A stretch of 32,000 nt of DNA from an uncultured Chloroflexia bacterium (GTDB taxonomy: Bacteria; Chloroflexota; Anaerolineae; Anaerolineales; Anaerolineaceae): the NCBI GenBank assembly GCA_963704755.1, contig OY969938.1, positions 480,001 through 512,000 on the forward strand, given 5' to 3'. A model generated the notes under the pieces. That model was not told the origin of the DNA and did not search any database. It saw only the letters and a list, made by a program, of their open reading frames with translations. Position numbers and translations under genes: made by a program. This document shows positions 8,064-30,276 of the stretch, piece after piece. The number at the start of each line of letters is the position of its first letter. Position 1 is the first letter of the stretch.

Positions 8064-8064
8064 A

Positions 8065-9066: not shown

Positions 9067-9075
9067 GAAGAAAAC

Positions 9076-11394
9076 ATGGAAGAACTGATTTCCTTAGTAT
9101 GTGCTGATATCCAAAAATTACAATTGGCTTTGGGGAAAAATGAAACCCAGGCCATTGATAGAGCCGTACAATCCCTCGAAAGACGGTTGTTTTCTGATCG
9201 CAGTTTCGAAAAGATAGGAGATGAGAGAGCTTTATTTTCTGCAACCAGGCTTCTTACCTCGATATACGATGAGGAAATTAAAGATCAACTTACACCGTTG
9301 GTAGATTGGCTTGATGTTATCAGGGATATCAATAACAAATTCTATGCCATTCTCAATCATGAGATCGGCCTCGATGATTTGCTATTGGCCCACCTATCAT
9401 CTTGGAAAATACTATCTGATGAGGTTCATTGCAACTATGATGAGAATATCAAGCTAAGGTTGAAAGATGCGCGGGAAAAAAATAGGGATGAACTAAAAAT
9501 TCGATCTTTCGTATCCTTATATATAGAGTACATCAGACAGCAATCTCCAATGCTAAATACTTCTGAGCTTGAGAGAGTCATTGAAGTGGTTTTAGAGAGT
9601 TATAAAGCCCTAAACCAATGGAATGCTCAAGCTCTATTTTCATTAGGCAATATAGGCGACGTTTACGGAACAAAGATTAAAGCTACACCGAATGGAACAG
9701 GAAGCATAGAATCGCTGAATGAAACTGATTTAGAAATGAAGAAAGCAGCAAACGGCGCCTTCACATTTATTAAAAGCAAATATCCCTTTGCAAAAACTTG
9801 GGATATCAATTGGGAAATAGAAAGAGGGGACATCCCGTACCAAGGGAACTCAATAGGTTTAGCATTATCTACTGGTATTCTATCTACCATCGAAGGATTT
9901 GAAATTGATCCTTACACTGCCTTCACAGGTCACGTCGAATGGAATACCGGTGATGTAAAGGCTGTTGGAGAGATAAGTGTTAAATTAATAGCAGCCAAGG
10001 ATCAAGGAATCCGAAGGGTATTTATCCCTTTGTCAAACTCAAAGGATGTACCAGATAATATCGGTTTAGATGTTGTTACGGTAAGCACTGTGGAAGAGGC
10101 CAGGAATAAATTAACGGTAAAGGCCTATATTAGTTCTAATATTCCTTTAGAAAAGCAGGCTGAATTAAAACTTAAGCAGCTAGAGATAGAGCTTTCCAAT
10201 CAAGGGATTAAGGCTACGGGGCCAATTGAGAACGGAAATTCCTTCAAGAGAATTGTTTTCACTGATTACCGTGATCAAGTTTTCGTGAACATGTATTACG
10301 GCAGAAGTGGAATAACCGCTAATGTTCAGCAAAAAAAATGTTCCTTGAAGGATAAACTGCAAGCAGCGTGTGACAGAATTATTGGAAAACAAATTACTGA
10401 AACATCAGACGAAGTGAAGCGAGACAAGTACGTCATTAAAGATCAAGATATCCAAAAGCGGGTTGAAGATTATCTCTTTGCCTTTCCAAACTCGTTACGG
10501 GAGGCTGAACAGAATTGCCAATACAGATCAAAAATTAATCAAAATGGCCAAACGGTTCGTGTTCGCCAATTTAATAACGGGACACTTACTATAGATGGCC
10601 AAGATCCCCTTTTCACTACTATTAATTCTAGTTTACAAGCCCTTTTAGGAGTCGCTTCTTCTAAAACACAGGATGATCCTAAGAGTTCGAAATTAGCAGC
10701 ACAAATAGATGCTGTAAAGGCAATTCCCTTAGGAGATCAATGGATTGGTACAGATGAGGCTGGAAAAGGAGACTACTTTGGCCCTCTTGTGGCTGCGGCA
10801 GTGATGGTTGATCGTCAAATTGCGGATCAGTTGTCAAAAATAGGAGTGAAGGATAGCAAAGAACTCTCCGATAATCGAAACAAAGAGTTAGCAATTCAAA
10901 TACAAACAATCTGTGGAAAACATGCGCAAGTAGTCATGATCCCTCCGGCCAAATATAATGCCCTTTATGAACAATTTCAAAAAGAAGGTAAAAACCTCAA
11001 TACATTATTAGCTTGGGCTCATACTCGAGCGCTAGAAGACATCTTGACTTCCTTTCCTCAAAACCAGATCACAGTAATCATCGATAAGTTCGCAGACGAG
11101 CAATATATCAAAAGCAAGCTTCTTGAAAATACAAGGCGAGCGAATTTGAATCTTATTCAGCTTCCAAAAGCAGAGGCAAATATAGCAGTAGCTGCGGCAT
11201 CAATCCTAGCAAGGGCGCAATTTCTTATTTGGCTGGAGCGGAGTTCTCAGCTACTTAACGTTTCTCTACCTAAAGGCGCATCCGATCCTAGAATCACTCT
11301 GGTCGCCCGACAGATTGTTAAAAATCAAGGCCCCGCGAAATTAACTGAGTATGTAAAACTGCATTTTAAAACCACCAAGGAAGTTCTCTCATAA
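9076..11394 (+). CDS. Multidomain fusion: N-terminal helical region, Lon-protease (S16) proteolytic-domain homolog, two RNase HIII N-terminal (DUF3378/TBP-like) modules, and an RNase HIII catalytic domain
   Basis: 772 aa.
- Lon_C-like: GTKIKATPNGTGSIESL..MKKAANGAFTFIKS..YQGNSIGLALSTGILSTIEG..AFTGHVEWNTGDVKAVGEISVKLIAAKDQGIRRVFIPLSNSKDV aligns residue for residue with E. coli Lon DGPSAGIAM...[35 protein letters not shown].
- RNase HIII: GTDEAGKGDYFGPLVAAAVMVD..KDSKELSD..VIIDKFADE (D560/E561, nt 10753-10758).
- N-domain-like segments: VFVNMYYGRSGITANVQQKK and VRVRQFNNGTLTIDGQD. Confidence 0.75.
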   Translation: MEELISLVCADIQKLQLALGKNETQAIDRAVQSLERRLFSDRSFEKIGDERALFSATRLLTSIYDEEIKDQLTPLVDWLDVIRDINNKFYAILNHEIGLDDLLLAHLSSWKILSDEVHCNYDENIKLRLKDAREKNRDELKIRSFVSLYIEYIRQQSPMLNTSELERVIEVVLESYKALNQWNAQALFSLGNIGDVYGTKIKATPNGTGSIESLNETDLEMKKAANGAFTFIKSKYPFAKTWDINWEIERGDIPYQGNSIGLALSTGILSTIEGFEIDPYTAFTGHVEWNTGDVKAVGEISVKLIAAKDQGIRRVFIPLSNSKDVPDNIGLDVVTVSTVEEARNKLTVKAYISSNIPLEKQAELKLKQLEIELSNQGIKATGPIENGNSFKRIVFTDYRDQVFVNMYYGRSGITANVQQKKCSLKDKLQAACDRIIGKQITETSDEVKRDKYVIKDQDIQKRVEDYLFAFPNSLREAEQNCQYRSKINQNGQTVRVRQFNNGTLTIDGQDPLFTTINSSLQALLGVASSKTQDDPKSSKLAAQIDAVKAIPLGDQWIGTDEAGKGDYFGPLVAAAVMVDRQIADQLSKIGVKDSKELSDNRNKELAIQIQTICGKHAQVVMIPPAKYNALYEQFQKEGKNLNTLLAWAHTRALEDILTSFPQNQITVIIDKFADEQYIKSKLLENTRRANLNLIQLPKAEANIAVAAASILARAQFLIWLERSSQLLNVSLPKGASDPRITLVARQIVKNQGPAKLTEYVKLHFKTTKEVLS

Positions 11395-11404
11395 AGGCAG
11401 AAAC

Positions 11405-12682
11405 ATGGTTACCCCACAGCTTACAACACAAATCGAAGATTTGTTGAAACGCGCTGAACTACTAGCAGAAAAACATGATTGGTCTGGAGCCGCAGATATT
11501 TGTGATGAGGCTGTCAAGGAAGCTCCGGCCAATATTTCTGTCATTGGACAACTCGGTTGGTATTTATCTCGATCCAAACGATACGCTGAAGCAATCAAAA
11601 TTTATGAAAAATTAAGCGAATTGGAACCAAAATTAGCCAAATGGCCATATATGGTTGGATATCAATACTACGATCAAAAGCTGTATAAGGAAGCTGTCAT
11701 CTGGTTCGATAGAGCATTAAACCGGCACGAAAATTACTTGGTTGTACTATATCGTAAAGGCTATGCACATTCTCAATTGAACGAAAAAGATGCTGCTATT
11801 GGCGCATTTGAAAAATGTATCAATATTTGGAAGAGTCTCGATGACCAGAATAAAGAGAAAGAAAAAAAATCCTACGCAGATGCTTGCTTCCAATTAGGAA
11901 AAATCTATTTATTGTCAGCCCAGTCAAGAAAAGCGGAAGCTGTTCTGGCTGAAGCTGTTCGCCTAGATAACCAGGATGCATATAAGTACTACGAGTACGG
12001 AAAATCTTTATTGAAGAATCAGAAACCAGAAGAAGCATTGGCTCAACTTCAGAAGGCGGAAAAACTTGAACCTCGTAAAGATTTTATTCTCGCTTATATT
12101 GCTCAGGCTTTGATGGAACTTAAAAGAATTGATGAAGCAGATAAGTTTTTAGCAAAGATTCCTGAACGATCTAGAAAGGAATATATCTGGCGAACTGTTG
12201 GAAGGGTCAGATTAGCACAAGGAAGAACCACTGAAGCTATAAGTGCTTTTAAGCAGGGGATTCGTCTAGATTCCGAAAACCATAATTCTTATTATCACCT
12301 TGGATTAGCTTATCTTGCGTGCAACGACTATCCCCAGGCATTTCAAGAATTAACTAAGGCAATAAATGTCAGAAAAGATAAATATAATCTGGACTTCCCT
12401 GAAGTAAGTCAGAAACTCGAGGAAGTTATTGAATACGCAAAAAATAACGGGATCGATTTATCCGCTGACAAGCCTATCCTTGAGAGCAAACCGATGGGTA
12501 CTATAACAAATTACAATGCGACAAGGGGTTTTGGGTTTATAAAAATGAACAGCGGTGAAGACCTGTTCTTTCATATATCCAGCGTAACCAATCCAGATAT
12601 GATCGAGGTCGGTCGTGGTGTTCATTTTGGTATTGAGGAGACACCAAAAGGGAAAAGGGCCAAAGAGGTAAAGATTCAATAA
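11405..12682 (+). CDS. TPR-repeat protein with a C-terminal cold-shock (CSD/OB) nucleic-acid-binding domain
   Basis: 425 aa. It has repeated 34-residue A/Y/L patterns (e.g. YAEAIKIYEKLSELEPK, YKEAVIWFDRALNRHEN, YPQAFQELTKAINV). The C-terminus GTITNYNATRGFGFIKMNSGEDLFFHISSV matches the CspA-type motif G.V.WFN..KGFGFI...G.D.FVH.S. Confidence 0.8.
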   Translation: MVTPQLTTQIEDLLKRAELLAEKHDWSGAADICDEAVKEAPANISVIGQLGWYLSRSKRYAEAIKIYEKLSELEPKLAKWPYMVGYQYYDQKLYKEAVIWFDRALNRHENYLVVLYRKGYAHSQLNEKDAAIGAFEKCINIWKSLDDQNKEKEKKSYADACFQLGKIYLLSAQSRKAEAVLAEAVRLDNQDAYKYYEYGKSLLKNQKPEEALAQLQKAEKLEPRKDFILAYIAQALMELKRIDEADKFLAKIPERSRKEYIWRTVGRVRLAQGRTTEAISAFKQGIRLDSENHNSYYHLGLAYLACNDYPQAFQELTKAINVRKDKYNLDFPEVSQKLEEVIEYAKNNGIDLSADKPILESKPMGTITNYNATRGFGFIKMNSGEDLFFHISSVTNPDMIEVGRGVHFGIEETPKGKRAKEVKIQ

Positions 12683-12959
12683 TAAGGTTATATTGGCAGA
12701 TTTCCATCGAACCTAGGCTCCCCTGGTATCGGAAATTAATTGAACTAATTTTATTTCAAAATGTTAGTTGCACCTGAAGTCTTTATTCTAAAGTGGATAC
12801 TGTCGAAAAAAAGTATATCTAATGAGTGCTATTTCCATTAATATCCCGTTAGATGTACGTAACGGCTACTACCTAATCAAGAAAAACAACTTTATTGGTT
12901 CACAAGTTTGAAAATGTTTTCTGCTCAGTTATTAAGTAGCGAAATGGGGGATATGATCA

Positions 12960-15954
12960 ATGCCTACAAAAAACAAAAAGAGGAAACAGCCTGATGATTA
13001 TCATCTTTTGGCCGCTAATAGAGGTTTTCGTTGGTTAGGCCCAGAGGTACCTACAACAAAAACTTTAACTACATGGGAATGTCCTAAGGGACACCAGTGG
13101 AGGGCTATTTATAATAATTTACAACAAGGCCGCGATTGCCCATTTTGTGCAAGAAAAAAGACAGCAATTGATTACCAATTACTGGCTCAAAAACGAGACT
13201 ATGAATGGTTAGGACCTTTTGTTAAAAAATACGTCATTCCGACAAAATGGAAATGCCAATTAGGTCATGAGTGGTTAGCGAGTTATCGCGAAATATTACG
13301 TGGTGATCTCTGTCCATTATGCTTTTCTACCTTTGAGAGAAAAGAGATAACTGAAAGCCGGGAAGTTTCTATAGAATCAAACGCTTCTGATGGTTTAACA
13401 ACTAATGGTGAATTATCAGAAATGGAAAATATCAATGAAGAACTCATTTTTGATTGGTGGGAAAAGAATTCTATTAAATTCCTAATGCCATTGTTTGCGT
13501 CAACAAAAAAGTTCATTCGACTTTCCACCGGTTTTTTCTCAATACAAGGTTATAACTTACTCAAGTCGTATCTTGTAAATAAACATATAGATATTCTTGT
13601 CGGTTATGACGATCGATCAAGACATGAGCTAAGAATGACATTGATCGAAGAAATAATGGAAGATTTAAGTAAATGGAAAGGAAATCGTCGCGAAGCAGTT
13701 TTAAATCTCATAGAGAAGTTAGAAAAAAGAGAATTAAGAATCGTCGATGCTCGTCTTAAGAAAAAGGACCATTCAAAAATATATATTTTTGATGGGCAAT
13801 TTGTTGCTAGTGGATCAACCAATTTAACAAAAAATGGTTTGCTGCTGAACCAAGAAGGAGATTTGGCAATTTCCAGTGCTGACAAACCTGAACGAGTGGG
13901 ATGGTGGTGCGATCAATATGAAAAATTTTGGAATGATCCTGACGCGATAGATGTTAGCCAGGTTTTATTAGATCGTTTAAAGGGGTGGTTAGGCCTGTGT
14001 AAGCCTTGGGATGTATATCTCAAAACGATTCAGATACTTTCCCCGGAAAACAAACCAATTGCTCCACGTGAAAACTATAAAGTACCTACTGAATTTCAGA
14101 TGGTGGTTGTTGCTCGTGCTATTCGTCAATTAGATGAATGGCGAGGAGCAATGATCGTTGCGTCGACAGGGTTAGGAAAAACAATCATAGCTACTCACAT
14201 AGCCTATCAGTTGCTCCACGAAGAACAAACCATCCTAAATGTTTTAATTGTCGCGCCAAAGCCAGTTAAGGATGAATGGCAAAAACGTATGCGAAGTGCA
14301 GGGGTGCCAGCATCGATACATACAAGGAACATTCTTGATATGCCATTGAATGATGATCAAAATCAGATAGCTCTAGGTGAGTTACTCGAAGCACTTTCTG
14401 AAGTTGATGAGAAGTGGTTGATAATTATTGACGAAAGTCAGCATTTTAAAAATCAGGAACGTGGAATTGGTGGAGAAAGGCGGTCCTTTTCTCGCCTAAT
14501 AGATATTGTCAATGAGAAAAAATGTAAGGTTATACTCCTGACCGCTACTCCATACGCAACGGAGCTAGATAATATTAACCACCAGCTTTTATTACTGCCC
14601 CATACATGTCCAAATGAAAAACCTCATCAACGAGCAATTCCAGGGCTTGAGTTAGGTAAGCTGTATTTGCACTCTTGGAAGGTATTGCATGTAGAAGATT
14701 TAGTAAACCTGCCCGTTGGAACGGTAATCAATACACCTTATGTTGCCCAAAATTTTGCAATTCAAAGTGAAGATGGCGACTATTTAATGTTTGGTGACAA
14801 GAAAAATTACATACCAAAGATCCAAATAAGCAAAGTAAAGGTCCCTGTTTTTTTGGAGACCTCTGTTACTAAGGCCCTTGACGAAAACTATTTTAAACAC
14901 CACAAAATACGGTATATGTCTCGCGGTAAATGGACTCACTCCACGGCTGGAGCCGAAAATGAAGCGATTATTTCTTGGGGTAGTTCGCCTTGGGCGTTAA
15001 AGGAAGTCGTTGAAAAAACAATCAGAAGAGAAAGATGGATACGATTTTCCATTTATATTCGATATAGAAGAAAGGAAAAAAGCATTAACGCCACTATTAT
15101 TAGAATTAGGAAATATGAAATATGAAGACGATGAAAAATTTATGATCTTACTTAGGCTTGTAAAGGAGTTACGCAAAGTAGGGCATAAAATTTTACTCTT
15201 TTCAGAGCGTCTAATAACAGCAGTTTATATTGAGAAAGGTTTGAAAGCTGCATTTCCCGAATTGAGAATTGCAAACACAGTAATGAGTCACGGCACCGAA
15301 TATATTCAAAAAGAATTTCGGGATGTCTATCAACTGATGGTCGGTTTTGCCCCTCGCTCAAATTCCAGAGATGATGGGTTTGTTCCGGATGATAAGTACG
15401 ACATTTTAATTACTACAGATGCTTATAGTCAGGGTGTCAATCTACAGGATGCAAGCACGGTTATTCATTATGACATAGCCTGGACTCCAGATACAATTAT
15501 CCAAAGGGCAGGTCGGATATTGCGGTTTTGGCCGGACCCCAGGCTGATCCACTTTTATGTGTTTGCTGGAACCTACCAAAACGATATTCCCCGTAATAAA
15601 CAGTCATTTAGATTGCAGGGTCGGCTCGATAAACTAATTTCTAGAACAAAAGAGGCAGAAAAATTTAGTGAAATTCCGAGTATTCCAGAAGAAACTCAAC
15701 GATTTGACAGCCTAAGAGGACTCTCATCACTACCAATTGAATTGTTGGGATATATCGAAACACAAAACTTGGAAGATAATAGACTCGAAGTCTCTACGTT
15801 TTTGACGCATTTGACAGAGTTAAAGAATAATTCTGAATACGCAAAAACAATTCCTGATGACATTACAAGTGCTTTATATGTTAGCAAGTTGCATACACCA
15901 AAACTGTATGTTTTGATTAAAGTATCAGAAGAAATATCACTGGATGATGTATGA
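12960..15954 (+). pseudogene. Zn-ribbon x2 / PLD (HKD) nuclease / SNF2-family helicase, interrupted by a +1 frame break at the A6 run 15013-15018
   Basis: - N-terminus: two copies of W.C..GH.W......GR.CP.C (DUF4379-like zinc ribbons).
- Single HKD motif: DHSKIYIFDGQFVASGSTNLTKNGL (nt ~13766-13830).
- Helicase motifs: ASTGLGKT, IIIDESQHF and LLTATP.
- After the frame break, ORF 15010-15954 supplies KILLFSER, ITTDAYSQGVNLQD and IIQRAGRILR (motifs IV-VI).
- Removing one A gives ...EVVEKQSEEKDGYDF...
- The frame-0 tail (IRRERWIRFSIYIRYRRKEK) looks like out-of-frame junk. Confidence 0.8.
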
Positions 15955-16201
15955 CATCATAGAAAATAGATTGGAAAAGCTTGAAGAAGATCAACTCCTC
16001 AATAGAATTAAATGTACAAAAGATACTCCAACTGCCCTCATTGATGCCAATGTTATAGAAAAATATCAACAAAATTGCATTAATCTATGGTGTGAAAAAA
16101 GCAATTTGGACGATTTAGAACGTGAAGATGTCGTTCATATATGCTCGTTGTATTTATCTCCGGATGAAAAAACAATTCGAAGTTTTTTATCACAAAGCTA
16201 A
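15944..16201 (+). CDS. Small hypothetical ORF (85 aa) overlapping the helicase stop by 11 nt; it is either a coupled small gene or a further frame-shifted C-terminal extension of the helicase
   Basis: The ATGATGTATGA overlap joins it to the helicase stop. Its frame is open from 15917. I recognise no motif. Confidence 0.35.
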   Translation: MMYDIIENRLEKLEEDQLLNRIKCTKDTPTALIDANVIEKYQQNCINLWCEKSNLDDLEREDVVHICSLYLSPDEKTIRSFLSQS

Positions 16202-16435
16202 TTAATCTCCAGAGCATGGATTGCCTTCAAAATTGATATTGATTTCCACTCAAGTCAATTGTTCCTGGATGCAACTGCGGTTACCATGTGGCACTTTTGC
16301 TAAACAACAAGGGAAATAAAAATATCCGAAATTACATCCCTAAACCAATCGCAAGATGAAACCTACATGGTTATCCTCGGCAACTCTGCGGTTTTTACTT
16401 TACAATTGGTTTAGTCTATATCCAGGAGAACATTC

Positions 16436-19400
16436 ATGGCATTTGAACCGGGAGGAATGGCAGACAAGCTTGGCAATCGCTATGAGGGACGATGGGTTGC
16501 CAAGCAGTTTCTGAGGCTAATAAACGAAGAAATACAATCTCTGACAATTGAATTGATCGGTCCCAATGAGCAGGGGGTTGATCTACTGATAGTCAAGAAA
16601 GATGGGATTCGGCAATTGCAGCAATGCAAGGCGCGATTAGCAAACAGTGAGAATTGGACTGTAACGCATTTACAGAATAAGGGGATTTTACTTAGCCTGG
16701 AAAAGCATTTATCCCGTGATCCAAAGCAAGAATTTGCCTTGATCTCGCCAATCCCAGCTAGAAATTTAGCCGACATCTGTGAGAGTGCCAGGAATTCCAA
16801 TGACCGCCCAACGGATTTCTACCAACATCAGATTTTAGATATCGGAACAGAGCGGCGTAAAACATTCCAAAAATTATGCAATGGAATAGGATTAGACCCA
16901 ACCGAAGAATACGATCTGGGATTGGCTTACAATTATTTAAAGTGCACCTACTTTGAACTTTTTCCTGATGATCAAAATAGTTGGTCAGATATATTAACCC
17001 GTGCAGGTTTCCTACTAACTGGTGAACCTGAAACTGTAATTTCCGTCCTACTTACTTATGCAGAAAATGAAGATAGATACCGCAAACCAATCTACTCGGA
17101 CGAACTACTGCAATACTTGGAGAATACGCACAAAATTTTTCCTAGGCAGCTTCAACATGATCGAAGAATTGGGCCTGCTATTAAAAATCTACAAAGTGAA
17201 TTTTCAGAATCCATAGGTCCTGGATTGATTTGCAACAAAGTTATACCGAGAAACGAGACAGCACAAATTATTGAATTTATTGATAATGAAAAAGATGTAG
17301 TCTTACATGGCGCTGCTGGAAATGGCAAGAGCGGTGTTCTATACGAACTGACCGAATACCTTAGAAATCAAAAAATCCCATATCTTCCTATACGCCTTGA
17401 TCGGAGAATACCAAATGCAAATGCCAAATTATTCGGCGAAGATATGAGCTTACCAGAATTGCCCGCCTATTGCCTTGCTGGTTGGGCAATCGGTAGAAAA
17501 AGTGTTCTTATCTTAGATCAGCTAGACGCTATCCGATGGACTTCTGCTCACTCGTCGACTGCTATGAATGTATGCAAGGAACTGGTTAGGCAAGTTCGGT
17601 CATTGCGCCGAGATGGAAAGAAAATCGTCATCGTTTTTGCCTGCCGTACTTTTGATTTGGAAAATGACCCAGAAATCAAGAATTTACTCAGCGAATTTGA
17701 AAATCAAAGTTTCGTCCAAATCTCAGTTAACGTATTTTCAGAAGAACAATTGAAAGAGGTTCTTGGCGCGGATATTGCTGCTCTTACCAATTCTCAAAAA
17801 AGAATTCTCTCGATGCCGCAAAATTTGGCCATCTGGATGCAACTGAAACAGGATGGGATAAGACCAGAATTTCATTCCGCAACCGAATTGATGCGACGGT
17901 TTTGGGAAAACCGCCGTCAAATCTTAGAGCAGAAGGCGGGAATATCTGCTGAGCAAATTAACGAATTCTTACACCGCTTACTCGACTATATGGAAAATCA
18001 AGGGGAGATTTCGGCGCCTGTTGTTATGGCGCAGCAAAAAACTAGAGTCAGAAATGCATTAATATCATATGGGGTGTTGCAAAAAAATCAAAATAGGATT
18101 AGTTTCTGCCACCAACGATATTTAGATTACCTGATCGCAGAACGGCTACTGATACGGATTTATGAAAAGAGCAGTTCTATTAAAGAATGGCTAGGCGGAA
18201 AGGAGAAACAAACTCTTTTTCGGCGAGAACAATTGCGTCAGGTTCTTGCTTCTCTAGCAGATGAATCTCTAAAAGAGTTCTTTGATAACGCTAGAACACT
18301 TTTAGAGTCAGAAGAAGTACGTTTCCACCTCAAACATCTCATTCTCCAAATGATAGGCCAGTTGGATGAGCTCACTGAAGATATCGGCAATTATTGCCTT
18401 GCTCTGGCTCGTAATGATTATTGGCAAGACCACATTCTTCAAACTGTATATTTTGGGCACCATCAATGGGTATCATATCTCCTGAATGCCGGGGTTGTTA
18501 ATAAATGGTTATCCTCCTCTGAGGATTATATAGTTAATCAAACTTTGTGGCTGTTGCGATCAGTGGCTGAACATATTCCAGACCAGGTAACCGAGATATT
18601 GAGCCCGTTCGTGAACGCAGGTGGCATGTGGCCTGAGCGTGTCTTGAATGCGATTTGCTGGAGTGAATTTGATGATTCCGAGCAGATGTTCGAGTTTAGG
18701 TTGCAATTAATAAGAATTGGTCAGGTGAAGGATTTTGTCGACTGGAAATCACTATGTGAAAAATACCCGTTACGTGCGTTTCGTTTAATAGAAGCTGTGA
18801 TTTCAACAATTAAGATGGATGACGAAGATGAGACAAAACAAAGGAAAAGTCGCCTTGAGACCTGGTATGACCATGATCTGGAGGCACTTTATATTGCAGC
18901 GAAAAGGCACCCTATTCAGACCTGGGATCTTTTGATGCCTCATGTTGAGAAAATTACCAGCGAGCAAAAATATGGTAAGGGATGGATAGAGAGAAGCTTC
19001 TCTGGTCAGGAAACGGGAATGGCCCGTGGAGTAGTCAATATTCTTATCTTGTCTGGACAGCTTCTCGCGTCCGAACAGACCGATGAACTATTAGCACGTA
19101 CAACTCCTTTTGAATATAGCATTTCGTCTGGGGTACAGGGAATTATCGTAGCATCATATACGCATCTCCCTGGAAGCTATGCACAGAAAGGAATAGAATG
19201 GTTGCTTGCCGATTCAGCGCGGTTTCAGCTAGGTTCAGGTTTCAAAGAGCCGAAATGGATGCCAGCAGCGCGTCTTATAACGGCTCTATCACCTTTCTGC
19301 ACCGAGGGTTTATTTCGTAAACTTGAAGACGCCATTATCCACTACCATGCTCCAGAAGAAAAACGGGAGGCTGAATATTGCCTGAAAGGATGGCGGGAAG

Positions 19401-21061
19401 GCTTCTTCGATCATTACTGGGGAGAGGCACAGTATTTTCTATTACCTGCACTAGACTCAAAAAGAATTCGACCAACCACTGCCGATTTGATTCGAGTGTT
19501 GGAAAGAAAATTTAGTCATTATTCAAAGGATCATTTCCTGAGATACGGATCTTCCGGTGTTGAGGTTGGTTCTAAGTTAGATCCAAATCTTGATAAAATC
19601 AGCGACCGAGCCTGGCTCAAGATTGTAAATAACCAAAAAATTGGCAAACGACATAGCCACAAGTGGATCCAGGTAGATTCTGACCATGTATTGGAAGCAT
19701 CGATTGAGCAGTTTGCCGGGAGTTTTTCCCGGATAGCCCAGCGGTTTCCAGAACGTTTTGGCCAACTCGCGCTTAAGTTTCCAGAAAATGTCGATCCATT
19801 GTACATTTCAGCCATCCTCGGGGGTCTCAAAGGAAAACAACCGGGAAATGAAGTGCCAGAATCTGAGAAAAGAACTTGGGAACCAGCCCAGATTGAGACA
19901 ATCGAAGCTGTTTTAGATAAATACCAAGCTGGTGATGACCGAGAAATTGCTATGGCATTCTGCTGGCTTATGGCTGAACGGGCTGAGGAAAATTGGTCGG
20001 ATAAAACAATTGCTAGATTAGTAGATTATGCTTGCAACCATCCAGACCCAAATAATGACAAGTTAATAATCCATTCTGATAAAACCTCTGAGGAGGCTAC
20101 AATTGAAATGCTTTTTCAGAATACGATAAATTGTGTTCGCGGAATGGCTGCTGAGGCTATCGGTAAATTTTTGTGGAATCATCAAGACTGGAAAGAAAAA
20201 CTTTTGCCCGGAATAAAGTCCCTAGTTCATGATCCTCATCCTGCGGTCCGAATGGCTGCTCTTGAAGCAATTTATCCTGTTTTAAACATCGACAAGAATT
20301 TGGCAGCTCAGTGGTTTCGCGAGGCTTGCGAAGATGATTTAAGAGTAGCGGCTTCTCCCCGAGCTTTGCCTTTTTTCAACTACGTTATTCCGAGTCACAT
20401 TGACCTAGTTGGACCTATTATTAAGAGAATGGTAATTTCCCCGATAGATGAAGTGGCATTGCAAGGTGCGAGACAGGTGACAGCTCGTTGGTTCTTTCAT
20501 GGTTATTTTGAAAATGAGTTTAGAGAATGCATTAAGGGAAAGAGTGTACACCGGAAAAGTGTTGCAGACGTCGCTGTATACTTGCTAAAAGATGAACAGT
20601 ATTCCAGAAAGTGCCAAGAAATTCTATACCAATTTATGAATGACCCAGATAAAGATGTACGCAATGAATTGCATAGTATGTTAAATCATAACTACCTTTT
20701 TGATAATCAGGAATATCAAGCTTTTATCAGAACATATATTAAATCACAAGCGTTTGCGGACAATCCCGATCTTTTTATCGTGAGCAGCAAGGAGGTCGCG
20801 GTAAATATTATTCCTTTAGCAGATGCAATTTTCACCATCTGCGAAGTATTTTCAACATCTTTAAAAGAAAAGACACGCGATATTAGTTCAAGATACCCTT
20901 ACTTGGTGTCTGAGATTTCGGCTGTTTTGCTGAGACTTTATGAACAAGCTCAGGGCGAACGAAACCAACACATTGCGGGCCGATGCCTGGATATTTGGGA
21001 CCTATTTTTCGAGAATAGAGTGGGCAGAACTTTAGAATTGACTAAAGCAATCGAACAATAA
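16436..21061 (+). CDS. 1541-aa protein with an N-terminal PD-(D/E)xK (Cap4/DUF4297-like) nuclease, a P-loop NTPase (STAND/AAA-like) and long C-terminal helical/HEAT-like repeats (Avs-like architecture)
   Basis: AGGAGA lies 7-8 nt before the ATG.
- N-terminus: GGMADKLGNRYEGRWVAKQFLRL...ELIGPNEQGVDLLIVKKDGIRQLQQCKAR (E ... D ... QxK).
- Walker A: VVLHGAAGNGKSGVLYEL (nt ~17308-17337).
- Walker B: VLILDQLDAIRW.
- C-terminal HEAT signature: VHDPHPAVRMAALEAIYPVL (nt ~20228-20285). Confidence 0.7.
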   Translation: MAFEPGGMADKLGNRYEGRWVAKQFLRLINEEIQSLTIELIGPNEQGVDLLIVKKDGIRQLQQCKARLANSENWTVTHLQNKGILLSLEKHLSRDPKQEFALISPIPARNLADICESARNSNDRPTDFYQHQILDIGTERRKTFQKLCNGIGLDPTEEYDLGLAYNYLKCTYFELFPDDQNSWSDILTRAGFLLTGEPETVISVLLTYAENEDRYRKPIYSDELLQYLENTHKIFPRQLQHDRRIGPAIKNLQSEFSESIGPGLICNKVIPRNETAQIIEFIDNEKDVVLHGAAGNGKSGVLYELTEYLRNQKIPYLPIRLDRRIPNANAKLFGEDMSLPELPAYCLAGWAIGRKSVLILDQLDAIRWTSAHSSTAMNVCKELVRQVRSLRRDGKKIVIVFACRTFDLENDPEIKNLLSEFENQSFVQISVNVFSEEQLKEVLGADIAALTNSQKRILSMPQNLAIWMQLKQDGIRPEFHSATELMRRFWENRRQILEQKAGISAEQINEFLHRLLDYMENQGEISAPVVMAQQKTRVRNALISYGVLQKNQNRISFCHQRYLDYLIAERLLIRIYEKSSSIKEWLGGKEKQTLFRREQLRQVLASLADESLKEFFDNARTLLESEEVRFHLKHLILQMIGQLDELTEDIGNYCLALARNDYWQDHILQTVYFGHHQWVSYLLNAGVVNKWLSSSEDYIVNQTLWLLRSVAEHIPDQVTEILSPFVNAGGMWPERVLNAICWSEFDDSEQMFEFRLQLIRIGQVKDFVDWKSLCEKYPLRAFRLIEAVISTIKMDDEDETKQRKSRLETWYDHDLEALYIAAKRHPIQTWDLLMPHVEKITSEQKYGKGWIERSFSGQETGMARGVVNILILSGQLLASEQTDELLARTTPFEYSISSGVQGIIVASYTHLPGSYAQKGIEWLLADSARFQLGSGFKEPKWMPAARLITALSPFCTEGLFRKLEDAIIHYHAPEEKREAEYCLKGWREGFFDHYWGEAQYFLLPALDSKRIRPTTADLIRVLERKFSHYSKDHFLRYGSSGVEVGSKLDPNLDKISDRAWLKIVNNQKIGKRHSHKWIQVDSDHVLEASIEQFAGSFSRIAQRFPERFGQLALKFPENVDPLYISAILGGLKGKQPGNEVPESEKRTWEPAQIETIEAVLDKYQAGDDREIAMAFCWLMAERAEENWSDKTIARLVDYACNHPDPNNDKLIIHSDKTSEEATIEMLFQNTINCVRGMAAEAIGKFLWNHQDWKEKLLPGIKSLVHDPHPAVRMAALEAIYPVLNIDKNLAAQWFREACEDDLRVAASPRALPFFNYVIPSHIDLVGPIIKRMVISPIDEVALQGARQVTARWFFHGYFENEFRECIKGKSVHRKSVADVAVYLLKDEQYSRKCQEILYQFMNDPDKDVRNELHSMLNHNYLFDNQEYQAFIRTYIKSQAFADNPDLFIVSSKEVAVNIIPLADAIFTICEVFSTSLKEKTRDISSRYPYLVSEISAVLLRLYEQAQGERNQHIAGRCLDIWDLFFENRVGRTLELTKAIEQ

Positions 21062-21303
21062 ATCCTTAACTGAGCGTATAGAAATTCACATACAGAAGTG
21101 AAACTTCGAGGAAATTGGTGATTTCAAGAGCTATACACAATTGACCTCACATTTTTAAAATGTCTACAACCTCGGGATGATTGATCACATTCATCTAGCA
21201 ATTGTCACCTTCTTTGAGAAATCTGAGACTGTTTACGTTTTCGCAAATCAGTAGGTCCGCCTCTATCCTACCACAGCGCTGCGGGTCTCATTCTGCGATC
21301 AGT

Positions 21304-21837
21304 TTAGTCGTAGGCTCTTTTTAGAGCTATTCTGTTGGCTTCTCGCAAGTTCATTCCGGGATTCTCCATTAGAATTCGGTATGCAACTACCCTAAGAGCC
21401 AAATCGCTGATTTCACAGCCCTGACGAAATCGATCGGCCGGGGTCAATTTTTGATAAATTTCAATTTGTCGACTATCGACCTCATCTGCACTGTTCTTGA
21501 TTTCAACCGCTAATTCTTCCGATATCGCTGGTTCCCCAACTAGAAAATAGCCACCATGTGATCTTCGGTGGTTAAAGGCTAATTTAATGTCAACCGCTTG
21601 AAATGCCTTCTCTATGATTTTCATGTCACTATAAAAAGCTGATTTTGTTGCTGATTTCCCGAATGAATTTCTTCCCAGTTTCTGGTTAACCCGACAGATC
21701 AGTTGTTGACGAGTAAGGTATCGCTCATCCCACAGTATTCTTAATAATTCCATTCGTCGCTTCAAGGTTGAAGCATGGCTGGTGGATTGCTGGCTTATAA
21801 CTTCTTTCACTTTCTGAAATAATGCTTGGTCAAGCAT
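21304..21837 (-). CDS. Hypothetical protein, possible N-terminal winged-HTH regulator
   Basis: 177 aa. RRMELLRILWDERYLTRQQLICRVNQKLG...KSAFYSDMKIIEKAFQAVDIKLAFNHRRSHGGYFL resembles HTH_11/DeoR-N-type wHTH modules (R..LL..L....T...L......S.RT..RD...L...G..I.......GY.L). It lies 42 nt downstream of the 210-aa gene. Confidence 0.4.
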   Translation of the reverse strand: MLDQALFQKVKEVISQQSTSHASTLKRRMELLRILWDERYLTRQQLICRVNQKLGRNSFGKSATKSAFYSDMKIIEKAFQAVDIKLAFNHRRSHGGYFLVGEPAISEELAVEIKNSADEVDSRQIEIYQKLTPADRFRQGCEISDLALRVVAYRILMENPGMNLREANRIALKRAYD

Positions 21838-21879
21838 ATAATTAATTACAATCCTGATGTTTTCTATACCGGAAATAAA

Positions 21880-22512
21880 TTATTTGCTAACAGAAGAGTC
21901 TGCATCTGGTGGTTTTTTGTCATGATTTTTACAATTTCGGCAGGGTGGAAGCTCATCAAGAATAATGTCCTTTGCTAAATCAAGAGATTTCATGCTTTTT
22001 AATTTCGGATTTTGGTTATCTACCCAGGAGCCCAATAATTCCATCAATCGATCAACAAAGTGTTCTCCAAAATAATCATATTTACAAAATGATTTGCGAC
22101 GATTATTGTCCTCAACTTCTTTTGCTTCTGACCACAAATCAACCAAACCTGGCTCAAGACGGCAAAGTTCTTTCCAGGTAATTTCGGAATCATTCATATC
22201 ATCATCTTGAACAATCTTTCCTGCAATTTCACGCTTATCAGGAAATTCAATTGCAGCTCTATCGTTTGTCCTAATAATTAATTCTTCGAGAGAAACATCA
22301 ACAATTTTCGCCAATCTAAAGTATTCTGGAGCATCGGCGTTGATTAATTTTACCAAAATGATTTTTAAACGATCGTGGATATCATTTAGTTCAGCGTTGA
22401 TTTGCTGAAAATCACTCCGCGTAAAACCAGATTCTAAACTTCTTACATCCTTGGAAGATAAGCTGAAAATCTCATCTTGTTTATGAAAACGGCCAGAAAT
22501 ACTTTTTCTCAT
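21880..22512 (-). CDS. Hypothetical protein (210 aa)
   Basis: A long ORF with GGAGGG 4-5 nt upstream of the ATG (minus strand). I recognise no family. The C-terminal CRNC motif is followed by a basic tail. Confidence 0.5.
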   Translation of the reverse strand: MRKSISGRFHKQDEIFSLSSKDVRSLESGFTRSDFQQINAELNDIHDRLKIILVKLINADAPEYFRLAKIVDVSLEELIIRTNDRAAIEFPDKREIAGKIVQDDDMNDSEITWKELCRLEPGLVDLWSEAKEVEDNNRRKSFCKYDYFGEHFVDRLMELLGSWVDNQNPKLKSMKSLDLAKDIILDELPPCRNCKNHDKKPPDADSSVSK

Positions 22513-22740
22513 TTACCCTCCATACGTTAAGTATATTAGACTACAAGAACGCATTCTTATCCATATTAAGATTCATAAATTTTTATTGGACCTTTATCCA
22601 TTTATTCATGAACGACCAAATAAGGGCAATTTTTCAAGCAAATTAACTCATATAAAAGGCATTTTATAGCAAAAGTGGGACAAGAATTTCAAGATTCACC
22701 GAATAGTAGAGTAAGTGGGGAAGGAGTGATTAAAGGATAT

Positions 22741-22783
22741 CTAAAAATAAACATATTCAGGTTGTCAATATGGCAACCTGAAT
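22741..22783 (-). terminator. Rho-independent terminator downstream of the 166-aa gene
   Basis: A 10-bp perfect stem ATTCAGGTTG/CAACCTGAAT (22755-22764 / 22774-22783) with a 9-nt loop. It is followed on the minus strand by ATGTTTATTTTTAG. Confidence 0.5.
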
Positions 22784-22841
22784 TAATGCCTTGACACTTG
22801 CAAAGAAATTATTGCACCCGAGATTTTCCCTCTATATTGAC

Positions 22842-23342
22842 CTAACCAGGATTGATGACTAAGCGTATAGTATATCCATGATATTCTCGAATATGCTCGA
22901 CATTGAACTTATAGTCACCCAACAGCCAAACCATGTCCTCGTAAGAAAGCGTCTCGATCTCTTCCGCTTGTTCATGGGATATAGCATCCTGGCGACACCA
23001 AAGCATGACCCGCAGAATCCATTGCCCGATCAGAGTAGACCAAAATTCGATCGGGATACGGATTGGGCGCAGGCGGCGATCGGGATAATCGAACATCCAC
23101 TCAATTAGATCCTCACAATCCTTTAGGACTATACCGACTTCCATTCTGTCCCACTTCACCTCTCCAACAACAATTCTTGCAAACTGCTGGAGCATAAGAC
23201 TCAGATGGCTCGATCTAAGTTCCTCCCTGGTATATCTGGGAATGCCGTCGGGCACAATACTACACATCGCATTCCAGTTGGTCTGGTGCTCCCACTCGCG
23301 TAAAAACGCATCGATGATTTCAAACTCGGCTTCTTTCAACAC
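22842..23342 (-). CDS. Hypothetical protein (166 aa)
   Basis: GTG start with GAGGAG 7 nt upstream (minus strand). I recognise no family. Confidence 0.5.
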   Translation of the reverse strand: MLKEAEFEIIDAFLREWEHQTNWNAMCSIVPDGIPRYTREELRSSHLSLMLQQFARIVVGEVKWDRMEVGIVLKDCEDLIEWMFDYPDRRLRPIRIPIEFWSTLIGQWILRVMLWCRQDAISHEQAEEIETLSYEDMVWLLGDYKFNVEHIREYHGYTIRLVINPG

Positions 23343-23495
23343 AGGTCGACTCCTCGTCTAAATTTTTTCAAACTTCACATGATGTAATTTTGCGCCTCTT
23401 TTATACATCATATGAGGATCAACCTCGGACGAATATTTTGACGAGTTCACCAGACCTTTTTGCACTTTATCGAAAGTTTAAGAGAATTAAAATTT

Positions 23496-23542
23496 AAAGG
23501 ACCATTTTCGTGACATCACGAAAATGATCCTTTGTCTTTTTT
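23496..23542 (+). terminator. Long hairpin plus T-run (terminator-like on the plus strand, with no plus-strand gene upstream)
   Basis: 18-nt arms AAAGGACCATTTTCGTGA / TCACGAAAATGATCCTTT (one mismatch, 2-nt centre), followed by GTCTTTTTT. Confidence 0.35.
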
Positions 23543-23564
23543 GGGCCAAATTTTGATGGATTGT

Positions 23565-23608
23565 CAGTTACCAACATTCAGGCCCAGTTACCAACATTCA
23601 TAGTTACC
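23565..23608. repeat. Two perfect 16-bp direct repeats CAGTTACCAACATTCA spaced 20 bp apart, plus a partial third copy (AGTTACC)
   Basis: Read directly: 23565-23580 and 23585-23600 are identical; AGTTACC recurs at 23602-23608. Confidence 0.9.
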
Positions 23609-23655
23609 GAGATAATTATACGAATACAACTTAATTAAGAAACTCGATAAATTGA

Positions 23656-23695
23656 CAAAAAGACAACGATTTCATTAGGAATCGTTGTCTTTTTA
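23656..23695. terminator. Bidirectional intrinsic terminator, probably the glmS terminator
   Basis: An 11-bp perfect stem AGACAACGATT/AATCGTTGTCT (23661-23671 / 23680-23690) with an 8-nt loop, flanked by an A-run and a T-run. It lies ~135 nt downstream of the glmS stop. Confidence 0.6.
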
Positions 23696-23828
23696 AGCCC
23701 TTTCCTAACCTTTTCTCGATTTTAAATCCTAAAATCTAAGAAGGAAATGTGGTTTTGGGGACAAACTTTACACTTGGGGCATACTTAATTACAAATCTCC
23801 ACGTCCCTCGCCTAGATCTATTTCCTTC

Positions 23829-26509: not shown

Positions 26510-28051
26510 ATGGATTTTGAAGAACGACTGGATATCTATCTGCGAGCCCGCTTTACCCTCATCGTCCTGGTGACGCCGGAGGAAGAGCGCGCTTTACAAA
26601 CGATCAAATCGGTCTGCGAGCGCACCCAACGCCGCTGCCTTACCTGGGATGCCGCCGATGGCTTCCAGGTGCTGGCCGGCTCGGGCGCCAACCCGCCCAC
26701 CGCGCGCGACCCGCTGACCGCCCTGGAGCACATCGACCAGGCTGACCCTAACGTTTCGTCATTGTTTATTCTCAAGGATTTCCACGAGGCCTGGAACAAC
26801 CCCCAGCTCAAGCGCAAATTACGCAGCGTCAGCCAGCGCTTGAAATTTGCCAAAAAATCCATCCTGATTACCTCGGTCAGCAGCGCGATCCCGGAAGAAT
26901 TAAAGGACGAATCCGTGCTGGTCGAATTTCCCCTGCCCAACACCGACGACCTGGACGAGGTGCTCAACCGCCTGACTCAGACCCCCGGCGTAAAGGTCAA
27001 CCTGACCCCGCTGGGCCGCGAAAAGCTGGTCCAGGCCGCCGTCGGGCTGACCGCCTCGCAGGCTCAGCGCGTCTTCGCCAAGTCCATCGTCCGGGATGGC
27101 CGCCTGGACGACCGCGACATTGACCTGGTCACCGAAGAAAAGAAACAGATCATCCGCGAATCCGAAGCGCTGGAATTTTACCCGGTCACCGAAACGCCGG
27201 ATAACGTCGGCGGGTTGGGTGTGCTCAAGGATTGGCTGCGTTTACGCGAGAAAGCCTTCACCCAGGAGGCGCGCAGCTACGGCTTGCCGGCCCCCAAGGG
27301 CATTGGCCTGATCGGCATCCCCGGCACCGGCAAGAGCCTGACCGCAAAAATGATCGGCGGTCTCTGGCGCCTGCCCCTGCTGCGTCTGGATATCGGCGCA
27401 CTGTTCGGCAGCCTGGTCGGCGAATCCGAGGAGCGTGCCCGGCGAGCCCTGCGCCTGGCCGAGACGGTCGCTCCCTGCATCGTCTGGATCGACGAGATGG
27501 AAAAAGGGCTGGCCCACGGCGGACAGGACAGCGGCACCAGCGCGCGCGTTTTCGGAACTATCCTGACCTGGATGCAGGAAAAAACGGCGCCCTGCTTCGT
27601 GGTCGCTACCGCCAACGATATCACCAGCCTGCCGCCCGAACTTCTGCGCAAGGGCCGCTTCGACGATATCTTCTTCCTCGACCTGCCCACCCAATACGAG
27701 CGCCAGGAGATCTTCAGCGTCCACCTGCGCAAACGCAAGCGCCTGCCGGAAGATTACGACCTGGAAAGCCTGGCCAAAGCCTCGGCCGGGTTGGTCGGCG
27801 CCGAAATCGAGCAGGCTATCATCGATGCCATGTACGTGGGCTTCAACGACGGCCGGCGCGAATTCACCACCGCCGACCTGCTGGCTGCCCTCAAGCGCCA
27901 GGTACCGCTATCCATCTCACAGCGCGAGACGATCAATTCGCTGCGCAACTGGCTGCGCGAAGGCCGGGCCCAATCGGCCTCCTTCCGCGAAGCCGAAGAA
28001 GCCGAAAACCAATTCGTGCCCATTGAGCTAGAAATCCGCAAAGGAGCCTGA
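26510..28051 (+). CDS. Classic-clade AAA+ ATPase (Ycf46-like)
   Basis: 513 aa. It has Walker [19 protein letters not shown], Walker [12 protein letters not shown], and the second region of homology with Arg fingers ([28 protein letters not shown]). The N-terminal ...[15 protein letters not shown]... is typical of Ycf46-type ATPases as I recall them. Confidence 0.8.
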
Positions 28052-28052
28052 C

Positions 28053-29645
28053 ATGCCCGGTCGCCTGGCAATCGATTTTGGCACATCCAACACCGTGGTC
28101 TCCCTCTGGAACGAGGAACGCAAAGAGGGCAGCTCACTCACCATCCCCGGCTACAGCCGCCAGGCCAACCAACTGGGCGAACCCGTCGCGATCATCCCTT
28201 CGCTGATCCATTACGCCGGCCCCAATAGTGTCTGGATCGGTGACCAGGTCCTTTCCCGCGGGCTGTATAACTCGCGCCATACTTTTCGCTGGATGAAACA
28301 GTACATCAGCAACCGCAGCCCCATCCAGGTGCGGGTCGGCGACCGTGAAATCAGCCCTTACCAGGCCGGCAAAGATTTTTTGCAGGCCGTCCTGGCTTCA
28401 GCTACCGGCGGGTTGGATTTAAAAGATGAAGAAGTAGCCTTCAGCGTGCCGGTCGAATCCTTCGAGCACTACGAAGATTGGCTCAGTCACGTGGCCGAGG
28501 CGGCCGGAATCGGCCGTTATCGCGTCATCGACGAACCCTCCGCGGCTGCCCTGGGTTACAACGAGCACATCCAGCCCGGCAGCGTGTACCTGATCTTCGA
28601 TTTTGGCGGTGGTACGTTGCATACCTCGGTCGTCCTGATCGAGCCGGGCGAATCCGCCCGGGGTGGCCGGCGCTGCCGCGTACTGGGCAAAGCCGGCAAA
28701 TCCATCGGCGGTACGCGCATCGACCAGTGGCTTTATCAGGAAGTGCTGAAACGCAATCACTACAGCGAAGACCACGAGCTGATCCGCCAGGCCAGTACAG
28801 CCTTGCTGGTGGCTTGTGAACAGCTCAAAGAGCGCCTGTCGTTCGAAGACCAGGCCGATCTGCTGACGGTTCCCCTGGCGGACGGCAGCGCGTTGGCCGC
28901 CCACTTTAGCCGGGCCGAATTCGAAGACCTGCTCGATCGCAACAACCTGTTCACCGACGCCGGCTACACCATCCGCACGGCCCTGAATGCCGCCCAGGAA
29001 CGGGGTTACACGGAAGACCGGATCCAGTCGGTGTTGATGGTCGGCGGGAGTTGCCAGATACCCGCGATCCAGCGCCAGATCCGCCAGACCTTCGGCCGCG
29101 AAAAGGTGCGCTACGAGCGCCCGTTGGATGCGGTTGCGCGCGGTACGGCCGCCTTTATCTCCGGCGCCGATTTCTTCGACCACATTCAGCACGACTACGC
29201 CATTCGCTACGTCGATCCGAACACCAACGCCTATGAGTATTACACCATCGTCAAGCGCGGCACGGCCTACCCCACCCAGGAACCGGTCGCGCGCCTGTCG
29301 GTCAAGGGCTCTCACACCCGCCAGCGCCAGTTAGGCCTGTCGATCTTCGAGATCGGTGAACGGCGCCACATCACCCTGGACGAAGCCGTCGAGCTGGTAT
29401 TCGATCCCTCCGGAGCAGCCCGCATCACTCAAATCACCCCGCAGGATGCCCTGGATCGCTCCCTTTATTGGATGAACGAAAAGTCACCGACTTTTTTGGT
29501 CGCCGAGCCGCCCGCCGAGACGGGCGAGCCGCGTTTTGAGGTCACTTTCGATATCGACGCAAATAAACGCCTGCTGGTCACCGCCCGGGATCTGTTGACC
29601 GGGTCGCTGGTGCTGCAAGATATACCGGTCGTTCATTTGAGTTGA
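28053..29645 (+). CDS. Hsp70/actin-fold ATPase (DnaK-like, short divergent C-terminal domain)
   Basis: 530 aa. It has the phosphate-1 motif LAIDFGTSNTVVS, IDEPSAAALGY, the phosphate-2 motif IFDFGGGTLHTSVV, and the adenosine motif LMVGGSCQIPAIQ. The ATG lies 1 nt after the AAA stop. Confidence 0.85.
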   Translation: MPGRLAIDFGTSNTVVSLWNEERKEGSSLTIPGYSRQANQLGEPVAIIPSLIHYAGPNSVWIGDQVLSRGLYNSRHTFRWMKQYISNRSPIQVRVGDREISPYQAGKDFLQAVLASATGGLDLKDEEVAFSVPVESFEHYEDWLSHVAEAAGIGRYRVIDEPSAAALGYNEHIQPGSVYLIFDFGGGTLHTSVVLIEPGESARGGRRCRVLGKAGKSIGGTRIDQWLYQEVLKRNHYSEDHELIRQASTALLVACEQLKERLSFEDQADLLTVPLADGSALAAHFSRAEFEDLLDRNNLFTDAGYTIRTALNAAQERGYTEDRIQSVLMVGGSCQIPAIQRQIRQTFGREKVRYERPLDAVARGTAAFISGADFFDHIQHDYAIRYVDPNTNAYEYYTIVKRGTAYPTQEPVARLSVKGSHTRQRQLGLSIFEIGERRHITLDEAVELVFDPSGAARITQITPQDALDRSLYWMNEKSPTFLVAEPPAETGEPRFEVTFDIDANKRLLVTARDLLTGSLVLQDIPVVHLS

Positions 29646-29659
29646 CCTACGGAGTACAA

Positions 29660-30270: not shown

Positions 30271-30276
30271 CGGATT

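Follow-up and report, generated by a model that had tools for sequence, protein, structure and literature searches.

Among described antiviral systems, the closest to the protein considered here is Avs7 of Salmonella enterica (SeAvs7; Protein Data Bank (PDB) entries 9N00/9N01/9YIX), an antiviral STAND (Avs; STAND, signal transduction ATPases with numerous domains) protein that was reported in bioRxiv in January 2026 and in Nature in July 2026 (Lee et al., Nature 2026, PMC13581612); the entries were deposited under the name 'AAA family ATPase' with a length of 1523 amino acid (aa) residues. In SeAvs7 a Cap4 nuclease is followed by a STAND nucleoside triphosphatase (NTPase) and a bilobed helical sensor; the protein senses the phage major capsid protein with the help of EF-Tu, and its tetramer cleaves double-stranded DNA (dsDNA) (Lee et al., PMC13581612). 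In the current study, we compared with this system the product of a gene at positions 16436 to 21061 of a 32,000-nucleotide stretch of DNA from an uncultured Chloroflexia bacterium (assembly GCA_963704755.1, contig OY969938.1, positions 480,001 to 512,000; termed the window). This 1541-aa product is probably a stand-alone Avs protein of the Avs7 lineage, being predicted to combine a Cap4 nuclease, a STAND switch and a HEAT-like sensor of ~900 aa.

In SeAvs7, D358 coordinates ATP and Mg2+, R395 contacts the gamma-phosphate of ATP and H545 the beta-phosphate of ADP, and a terminal helix (residues 1511-1521 of 1523), which is conserved in Avs7, clashes with the nucleotide-binding domain (NBD) upon activation (Lee et al., PMC13581612). 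The same authors count 3,272 Avs7 homologues and 9,097 proteins with an Avs7 sensor, their criterion for the sensor being >=70% coverage, and describe this sensor as very diverse and as spanning many STAND clades, with the use of EF-Tu confined to a clade of 192 Avs7 homologues (Lee et al., PMC13581612).

Domain layout and homology to Avs7

The features assigned to the gene are as follows, with coordinates given as window positions.

16436..21061, + strand: Avs7-like gene, probable single-gene antiviral STAND; ATG start, 1541 aa plus stop, uninterrupted (open reading frame (ORF) list and translation)
16377..16406, + strand: sigma-70-like promoter match 30 nucleotides (nt) 5' of the ATG, weak evidence (9/12 in a consensus scan; the region holds no more sites than expected from shuffling)
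16436..17215, + strand: predicted Cap4-type PD-(D/E)xK dsDNA nuclease effector domain, aa 1-260 (profile against SeAvs7, Pfam on relatives, AlphaFold2 (AF2))
16580..16630, + strand: predicted catalytic residues D49 ... Q63-C64-K65, (near-)invariant and aligned with D46 ... QCK of SeAvs7
17228..17725, + strand: predicted STAND NBD, aa 265-430 (AF2 with a predicted local distance difference test score (pLDDT) of ~90; Foldseek; PADLOC model PDC-M54A)
17309..17332, + strand: Walker A motif GAAGNGKS, aa 292-299 (K298/S299), aligned with GLPGSGKT of SeAvs7
17501..17527, + strand: Walker B motif VLILDQLD, aa 356-364 (D361, D364), D361 being aligned with SeAvs7 D358
17645..17647, + strand: R404, predicted contact of the ATP gamma-phosphate; CRTFD aligns with CRDFD (R395) of SeAvs7
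17741..18001, + strand: predicted helical domain 1 (HD1), aa 436-522 (AF2 helices; colinear with SeAvs7)
18011..18235, + strand: predicted winged-helix domain (WHD), aa 526-600 (AF2: beta-hairpin at aa 548-557, then a helix)
18110-18112, + strand: predicted STAND histidine H559; FCHQ aligns with FGHQ of SeAvs7 (H545)
18386..21058, + strand: predicted C-terminal HEAT-like alpha-solenoid sensor, aa 651-1541 (AF2, almost all helical)
19016..20155, + strand: central sensor region, demonstrably homologous to the Avs7 sensor, aa 861-1240 (hhalign, hmmsearch)
20135..20338, + strand: HEAT-scoring segment, aa 1234-1301, containing HDPHPAVRMAALEAI (Pfam HEAT_2, HEAT)
21029..21055, + strand: predicted C-terminal helix, aa 1532-1540, ending one residue short of the stop (AF2, helix 932-940 of the sensor model)

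When the protein was searched against PDB sequences with phmmer, SeAvs7 (9n00) was the sole match at E <0.01 (E 3e-9), and a profile of the family formed by its relatives aligned positions 49-648 with residues 46-629 of the same entry at E 2.7e-24. Residues 46-629 of SeAvs7 were rebuilt from the alignment and used to collect 120 SeAvs7-like proteins, all of them fragments (<=1017 aa). The family hidden Markov model (HMM) matches 109 of these, with E-values down to 7e-33, and in fragments that include an N-terminus its match typically runs from ~position 49 to ~645. Employing a diverse family alignment of 99 sequences (26-74% identity), hhalign comparison with the SeAvs7-like alignment returned a probability of 100% (E 2.4e-50) over 1132 colinear columns. 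A comparison of sensor with sensor was likewise colinear, joining aa 861-1240 to SeAvs7-like residues ~860-1210 with a probability of 94% (E 1.4e-7), as against 0.6% for a reversed template and <=5.8% for ten block-shuffled templates; a permissive setting stretches this alignment to sensor residues 7-754, without support. Two near-full-length SeAvs7-like genes could be rebuilt from the frameshifted loci L088 and L089, and in an hmmsearch against these the match (E ~1e-50) included the whole Cap4 domain from residue 5, while its sensor segment placed HMM positions 997-1250 on residues 969-1210 with an independent E-value (i-E) of 1.7e-8 (two sequences searched). The motifs GGxVxSP...SD, PxRFxrL, WxP and iNxxRG are common to the family and the rebuilt genes, and residues K291/T292, D358, R395 and H545 of SeAvs7 correspond to K298/S299, D361, R404 and H559 of the window protein.

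The two rebuilt genes belong to close SeAvs7 relatives that are frameshifted into two to three ORFs, at 5726-10638 of L089 (Aeromonas caviae CP120942) and 4232-8386 of L088, and the broken A. caviae gene is followed by a gene with insertion sequence (IS)-type transposase domains; both are decaying Avs7 genes. Two distant gamma-proteobacterial members, L061 (Aeromonas sobria) and L080, were considered as a bridge to SeAvs7 and rejected as intermediates because neither matches any PDB sequence.

Concerning the individual domains, aa 49-260 align in the family profile with the Cap4 domain of SeAvs7, QCK on QCK, and a profile restricted to the N-terminus has the Cap4 domain of 9n00 as its sole PDB match (E 0.0015). 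Pfam family PF14130 (Cap4_nuclease) is matched by 7/20 family N-termini (best E 2.9e-5) and no other family recurs; in the alignment of the first 260 aa of these 20 sequences (30-77% identity), GGxADKLGNRYE, E39, D49 and QCK are almost invariant. AF2 models the nuclease as a small alpha/beta core, with a beta-sheet formed by aa 33-64 and 99-104, and a helical extension.

The AF2 model of aa 1-720 (pLDDT 89, predicted template modelling score (pTM) 0.84) comprises this nuclease core, the NBD, a helical domain and a winged helix. Foldseek comparison of the model with the PDB gave Avs4 (8DGF), Avs3 (8DGC), NLRP3, NLRC4, NLRP9, EfAvs5, SAMD9 and NOD2 as the best folds, and because these rank ahead of ORC/Cdc6 and NSF, aa 265-600 are a STAND NTPase of NBD-HD1-WHD type. 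Around the P-loop, Pfam reports nSTAND3, nSTAND_NTPase5 and AAA_16 at sub-threshold scores, and PDC-M54A is the sole PADLOC model to match at E <=0.01 (E 2.6e-19), over aa 284-607 and thus over the NTPase only.

In the translation, the motifs GNRYEGRW, GVDLLIV and QQCK occupy aa 13-20, 47-53 and 62-65, GAAGNGKSG and VLILDQLD aa 292-300 and 356-364, and HDPHPAVRMAALEAI aa 1265-1279. When 47 homologues of full length (47-80% identical, mean column identity 63%) were aligned, D49, Q63, C64, G295, G297, K298, S299, D361, D364 and H559 proved invariant, with K65 and R404 kept in >=90% of the sequences; judged from this conservation, the motifs are under selection and no chance look-alikes.

The sensor was modelled separately (aa 601-1541; pLDDT 87, pTM 0.60) and is predicted to be almost wholly helical, the combination of a pTM of 0.60 with a high pLDDT being compatible with two lobes of uncertain relative position. 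At aa 1234-1301, HEAT_2 (33.4 bits, cut-off 27.7) and HEAT (28.6 bits, cut-off 23.5) score above the curated Pfam cut-offs, and aa 1236-1303 show a weak in-register match (~5 bits), around DKHPAVR, to SeAvs7 residues 1203-1274.

The original prediction, which had been made from the DNA sequence alone, can be set beside these results. Its assignment of the N-terminus to the Cap4/DUF4297 type is supported by PF14130 (7/20) and by the 9n00 match, the domain being ~250 aa long (core plus helical part) in place of the ~110 aa proposed. The P-loop NTPase that it had read from GAAGNGKSG and a Walker B motif was borne out, both motifs being invariant and the predicted fold being STAND by AF2 and Foldseek; the prediction had not placed this NTPase in a named clade by eye, and its only relative of solved structure by sequence is SeAvs7. 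The AF2 solenoid and the Pfam HEAT and HEAT_2 matches above cut-offs agree with the helical repeats and the HEAT signature that it had described. The contrast that it drew between HEAT repeats here and tetratricopeptide repeats (TPR) in Avs1-4 is not a real difference, because the HEAT segment aligns, weakly and in register, with residues 1203-1274 of SeAvs7, which its authors term 'TPR'.

Relatives and genomic setting

A word-indexed protein search retrieved 857 relatives, the best 120 of which are mostly ~1545 aa long, 47-80% identical and drawn from many phyla; every source-named relative among these 120 is labelled hypothetical. Scanning one genome per species, relatives were found in >=256 genomes at identities down to 27%, in Desulfobacterota, Planctomycetota and Nitrospirota as well as in Firmicutes (Paenibacillus, Clostridium, Anaerospora) and gamma-proteobacteria (Aeromonas, Motilimonas, Rheinheimera). 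This patchy distribution across phyla, at 27-80% identity, indicates selection together with horizontal transfer. Against 1.84e9 cluster representatives, the sensor profile matched 2196 clusters at E <=1e-3 and at least 839 (clustered at 50% identity) at <=1e-30, and nearly all listed full-length sensor relatives are ~1540 aa long, with the sensor beginning near residue 650. Effector swapping is typical of Avs families, and in one close sensor relative (P0350) an HNH endonuclease of the CBASS-effector type replaces Cap4; two further relatives (P0361 and P0387) have longer N-termini. Sensor relatives of ~1160-1250 aa were considered as Dsr1-like proteins and rejected, as none carries SIR2; most likely these are fragments truncated at the 5' end.

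The window gene is part of a low-GC block (~6400-23800; ~0.36-0.45 or, more widely, 0.32-0.48) within DNA of 0.55-0.68 GC, between BREX PglZ/BrxL and the 3' end of glmS (23829). Neither a tRNA nor a direct repeat of >=11 nt flanking the block was found, and no integrase domain occurs among the ORFs scanned in the window. Defence genes of the window comprise GmrSD, BREX PglZ/BrxL, a phospholipase D (PLD)-helicase and a protein with TPRs and a cold-shock domain, the first two being annotated as follows.

753-1244 and 1234-2091: GmrSD-like gene in two ORFs, GmrSD_N and the HNH-bearing part, respectively
2093-4447 and 4451-6496: BREX end, following the GmrSD-like ORFs, PglZ and BrxL, respectively

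In other loci the neighbours include toxin-antitoxin genes, a helix-turn-helix (HTH)-M78 peptidase pair, SbcCD, DNA methyltransferases with a recombinase, DISARM-like helicases, and type I restriction-modification with Schlafen-AlbA_2. A defence-island association was thus observed, in qualitative terms. When flanking ORFs were clustered across 64 loci, no neighbour family was present in >6 loci, and small upstream ORFs in two loci (L004 and L007), considered as partner genes, were rejected as they are not conserved. Judged from these comparisons, the gene appears to act alone and to move as a single-gene cassette between defence islands.

Within the block, positions 7035-12682 hold four tightly spaced or overlapping ORFs on the same strand, which encode a 342-aa protein with a sigma-70 region-4 HTH, a 350-aa protein without matches, a protein of 772 aa in which the C-terminal domain of Lon protease is fused to RNase HIII, and a TPR protein of 425 aa. 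The last of these ends in a cold-shock domain similar to the effector of retron Se72 (E 1e-13). The run may be an uncharacterised defence operon. At 12960-15954, two overlapping ORFs in different frames encode 721 aa (treble-clef zinc finger, PLD, ResIII/DEAD) and 314 aa (Helicase_C), and match the N- and C-terminal parts, respectively, of NF042964, 'phospholipase D-like anti-phage protein'. The pair looks like one defence gene for a PLD-helicase that has been broken by a frameshift, being either a pseudogene or the product of a sequencing error.

Three consecutive ORFs that separate the Avs-like gene from glmS (21304-23342, - strand; 177, 210 and 166 aa) gave no significant Pfam, NCBIfam, PADLOC or PHROGs match. 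The sequence CAGTTACCAACATTCA occurs twice in exact form at 23565-23600, at a spacing of 20 nt and ~230 nt away from the stop of glmS, and a degenerate third copy adjoins. These copies could be protein-binding sites, for instance the remains of a transposon end at the attachment site of glmS; no transposase genes were found near them. On the far side of glmS (26510-30846), an AAA ATPase, an Hsp70-like protein, a DUF1257 protein and a radical-SAM (Fer4_12) protein are encoded on one strand.

Weighing the Avs7 assignment

A number of observations weigh against placing the protein with Avs7. Over its first 640 aa the protein is only ~21-22% identical to SeAvs7-like proteins, the N-terminus of the window protein itself falls below every Cap4 threshold, NCBIfam models return zero matches, and none of the PADLOC Avs1-5, bNACHT and Dsr1 models matches the protein. 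In the sensor, similarity to SeAvs7-like proteins goes undetected by BLAST alone (E ~1), the confident alignment covers ~40% (aa 861-1240), with thin coverage of the C-lobe by the SeAvs7-like fragments, and SIR2, which would give a Dsr1-like architecture, is absent among the 150 listed sensor relatives. Foldseek recovers generic HEAT/ARM solenoids only for the sensor model (CAND1, importins and mTOR, at template modelling (TM) scores <0.3), and this supports a predicted HEAT-like solenoid and nothing further. The PDB set used for Foldseek left out 9N00/9N01/9YIX; the likeness to SeAvs7 is one of sequence and profile. Because the sensor alignment is partial, membership of the Avs7 lineage is likely, not proven.

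As the main alternative, the protein might represent a separate Avs family, having the Cap4-NTPase chassis in common with Avs7 and a sensor that evolved, or was exchanged, for a different phage protein; it would in that case lie beyond the set of Avs7 proteins curated by Lee et al. Such a family, which we consider unlikely, would accommodate a sensor similarity that is limited to ~380 residues and invisible to BLAST, the failure of the PADLOC Dsr1 and Avs models to match, and the large and self-contained nature of the group (839 sensor clusters at E <=1e-30, almost all ~1540 aa); moreover, >=90 Avs families of distinct structure have been described, in which the sensor is in some cases shared and in others clade-specific (Lee et al., PMC13581612). 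The sensor match, however, is colinear, lies in register directly after the NTPase and survives the reversed and shuffled controls; the two proteins are alike in length (1541 vs 1523 aa) and in the placement of the terminal helix, and the Avs7 sensor is itself reported across many STAND clades as very diverse (Lee et al., PMC13581612). It is very improbable that the protein is the A component of the multi-gene PADLOC system PDC-M54 and requires a partner gene: PDC-M54A is indeed the sole PADLOC match (E 2.6e-19), but it covers the NTPase only (aa 284-607 against positions 316-643 of 1621), no neighbour family recurs in >6/64 loci, and neighbours differ wholly between loci. SeAvs7-like proteins also match PDC-M54A, weakly, and the match therefore reflects a shared NTPase clade.

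It is hardly credible, moreover, that the protein is a non-immune STAND protein, such as a signalling or regulatory ATPase, or a functionless decaying relic. Non-defence STAND clades are interspersed with defence clades (Lee et al., PMC13581612), and two neighbouring defence genes of the window look frameshifted; against this stand an intact ORF, catalytic motifs without variation over 47-99 homologues, a nuclease of defence-specific type as the N-terminal effector, recurrence in defence-island contexts, and the wide, patchy distribution over phyla at 27-80% identity. Membership of the Avs7 lineage being the preferred reading, the window protein is probably a divergent, so far unannotated member of the known Avs7 kind. 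The original prediction had recognised an Avs-like layout of effector, NTPase and sensor, which is upheld by a predicted Cap4 domain (aa 1-260), an NTPase (265-600) and a solenoid (650-1541) in a defence island. Of the two identities that it offered, the distant Avs is upheld by colinearity with SeAvs7 and the new NLR-like family is not; a match to a named family, which the prediction had itself set as grounds for rejecting its claim, was found at a distance, as colinearity with Avs7 extends over nuclease, NTPase and the middle part of the sensor.

By analogy with SeAvs7, the resting protein would be an ADP-bound, autoinhibited monomer, the sensor of which would clamp a phage protein made during infection. 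Clamping would lead to release of ADP and binding of ATP through K298/S299, D361 and R404, followed by oligomerisation, probably into a tetramer; the oligomer would assemble the Cap4 domains into an active dsDNA nuclease, and the infection would be aborted. The trigger can be named tentatively, with somewhat less than even confidence, as an HK97-fold major capsid protein, in parallel with the sensors of Avs7 and Dsr1. Of all steps in the scheme this one is the weakest, because sensor identity to SeAvs7 is only ~10-20%. Involvement of EF-Tu is not predicted, because its use is limited to one Avs7 sub-clade.

It is conceivable, if doubtful, that the clade is a distinct branch of the Avs7 superfamily, with a remodelled HEAT-like sensor that recognises a target other than the HK97 capsid protein; such a branch may also work without EF-Tu. 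If this were true, more phage proteins would be known as sensed by bacterial STAND receptors. The Avs7 link supplies a testable mechanism and a solved structural template, and the divergent sensor offers a test of how far the Avs7 sensor can drift with its target kept or changed. Current defence annotation overlooks a family that hundreds of species carry, because its members are labelled hypothetical and are missed by PADLOC, NCBIfam and Pfam, bar the partial PDC-M54A and HEAT matches. The analysis improves annotation and reveals no new principle of immunity.

Comparison with known systems

Eukaryotic NLRP3, NLRC4, NOD2 and SAMD9 have the predicted NBD-HD1-WHD fold in common with the window protein (Foldseek E 3e-8 to 1e-5), whereas their effectors and sensors are others and there is no sequence-level similarity. 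PDC-M54A has a related NTPase (E 2.6e-19) and is similarly large (models of 1621-1657 positions); it differs in that ~20% of the model is matched and no partner gene accompanies the window gene. A literature search found no paper mentioning PDC-M54. Dsr1 (defence-associated sirtuin 1) reportedly shares an Avs7-type sensor and the capsid-protein trigger (Lee et al., PMC13581612), and differs in its SIR2 domain, which is absent from the window protein.

Avs3 and Avs4 (SeAvs3 8DGC, EcAvs4 8DGF; Gao et al. 2022) provide the best folds for aa 1-720 (E 2.4e-11 to 2.5e-10), and Avs3 likewise carries a Cap4 nuclease. The logic, in which a phage protein, once bound, induces tetramerisation and activates the nuclease, would be common to these proteins and the present one. 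In contrast, there is no sequence match to their PDB chains, the PADLOC Avs models are unmatched, and their sensors, which bind terminase in Avs3 and portal in Avs4, differ from the one described here.

The comparison with Avs7 is closer. The beginning of the N-lobe and the C-lobe of the Avs7 sensor are not demonstrably alignable with the window protein, and most of the present clade occurs in environmental phyla (Desulfobacterota, Planctomycetota, Nitrospirota and others) rather than in enterobacteria. Domain order and size are nevertheless common to both (1541 aa here vs 1523 aa in SeAvs7, with sensors of ~900-960 aa), and the terminal helix is similarly placed in the model of the window protein and in SeAvs7, and may play a parallel part in the two. 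Avs7 and this clade are both single-gene systems that appear to have spread horizontally over many phyla with effectors swapped, and between them the colinear profile homology extends from residue 5 to ~1250, the nuclease D...QCK and the four nucleotide-contact residues being kept.

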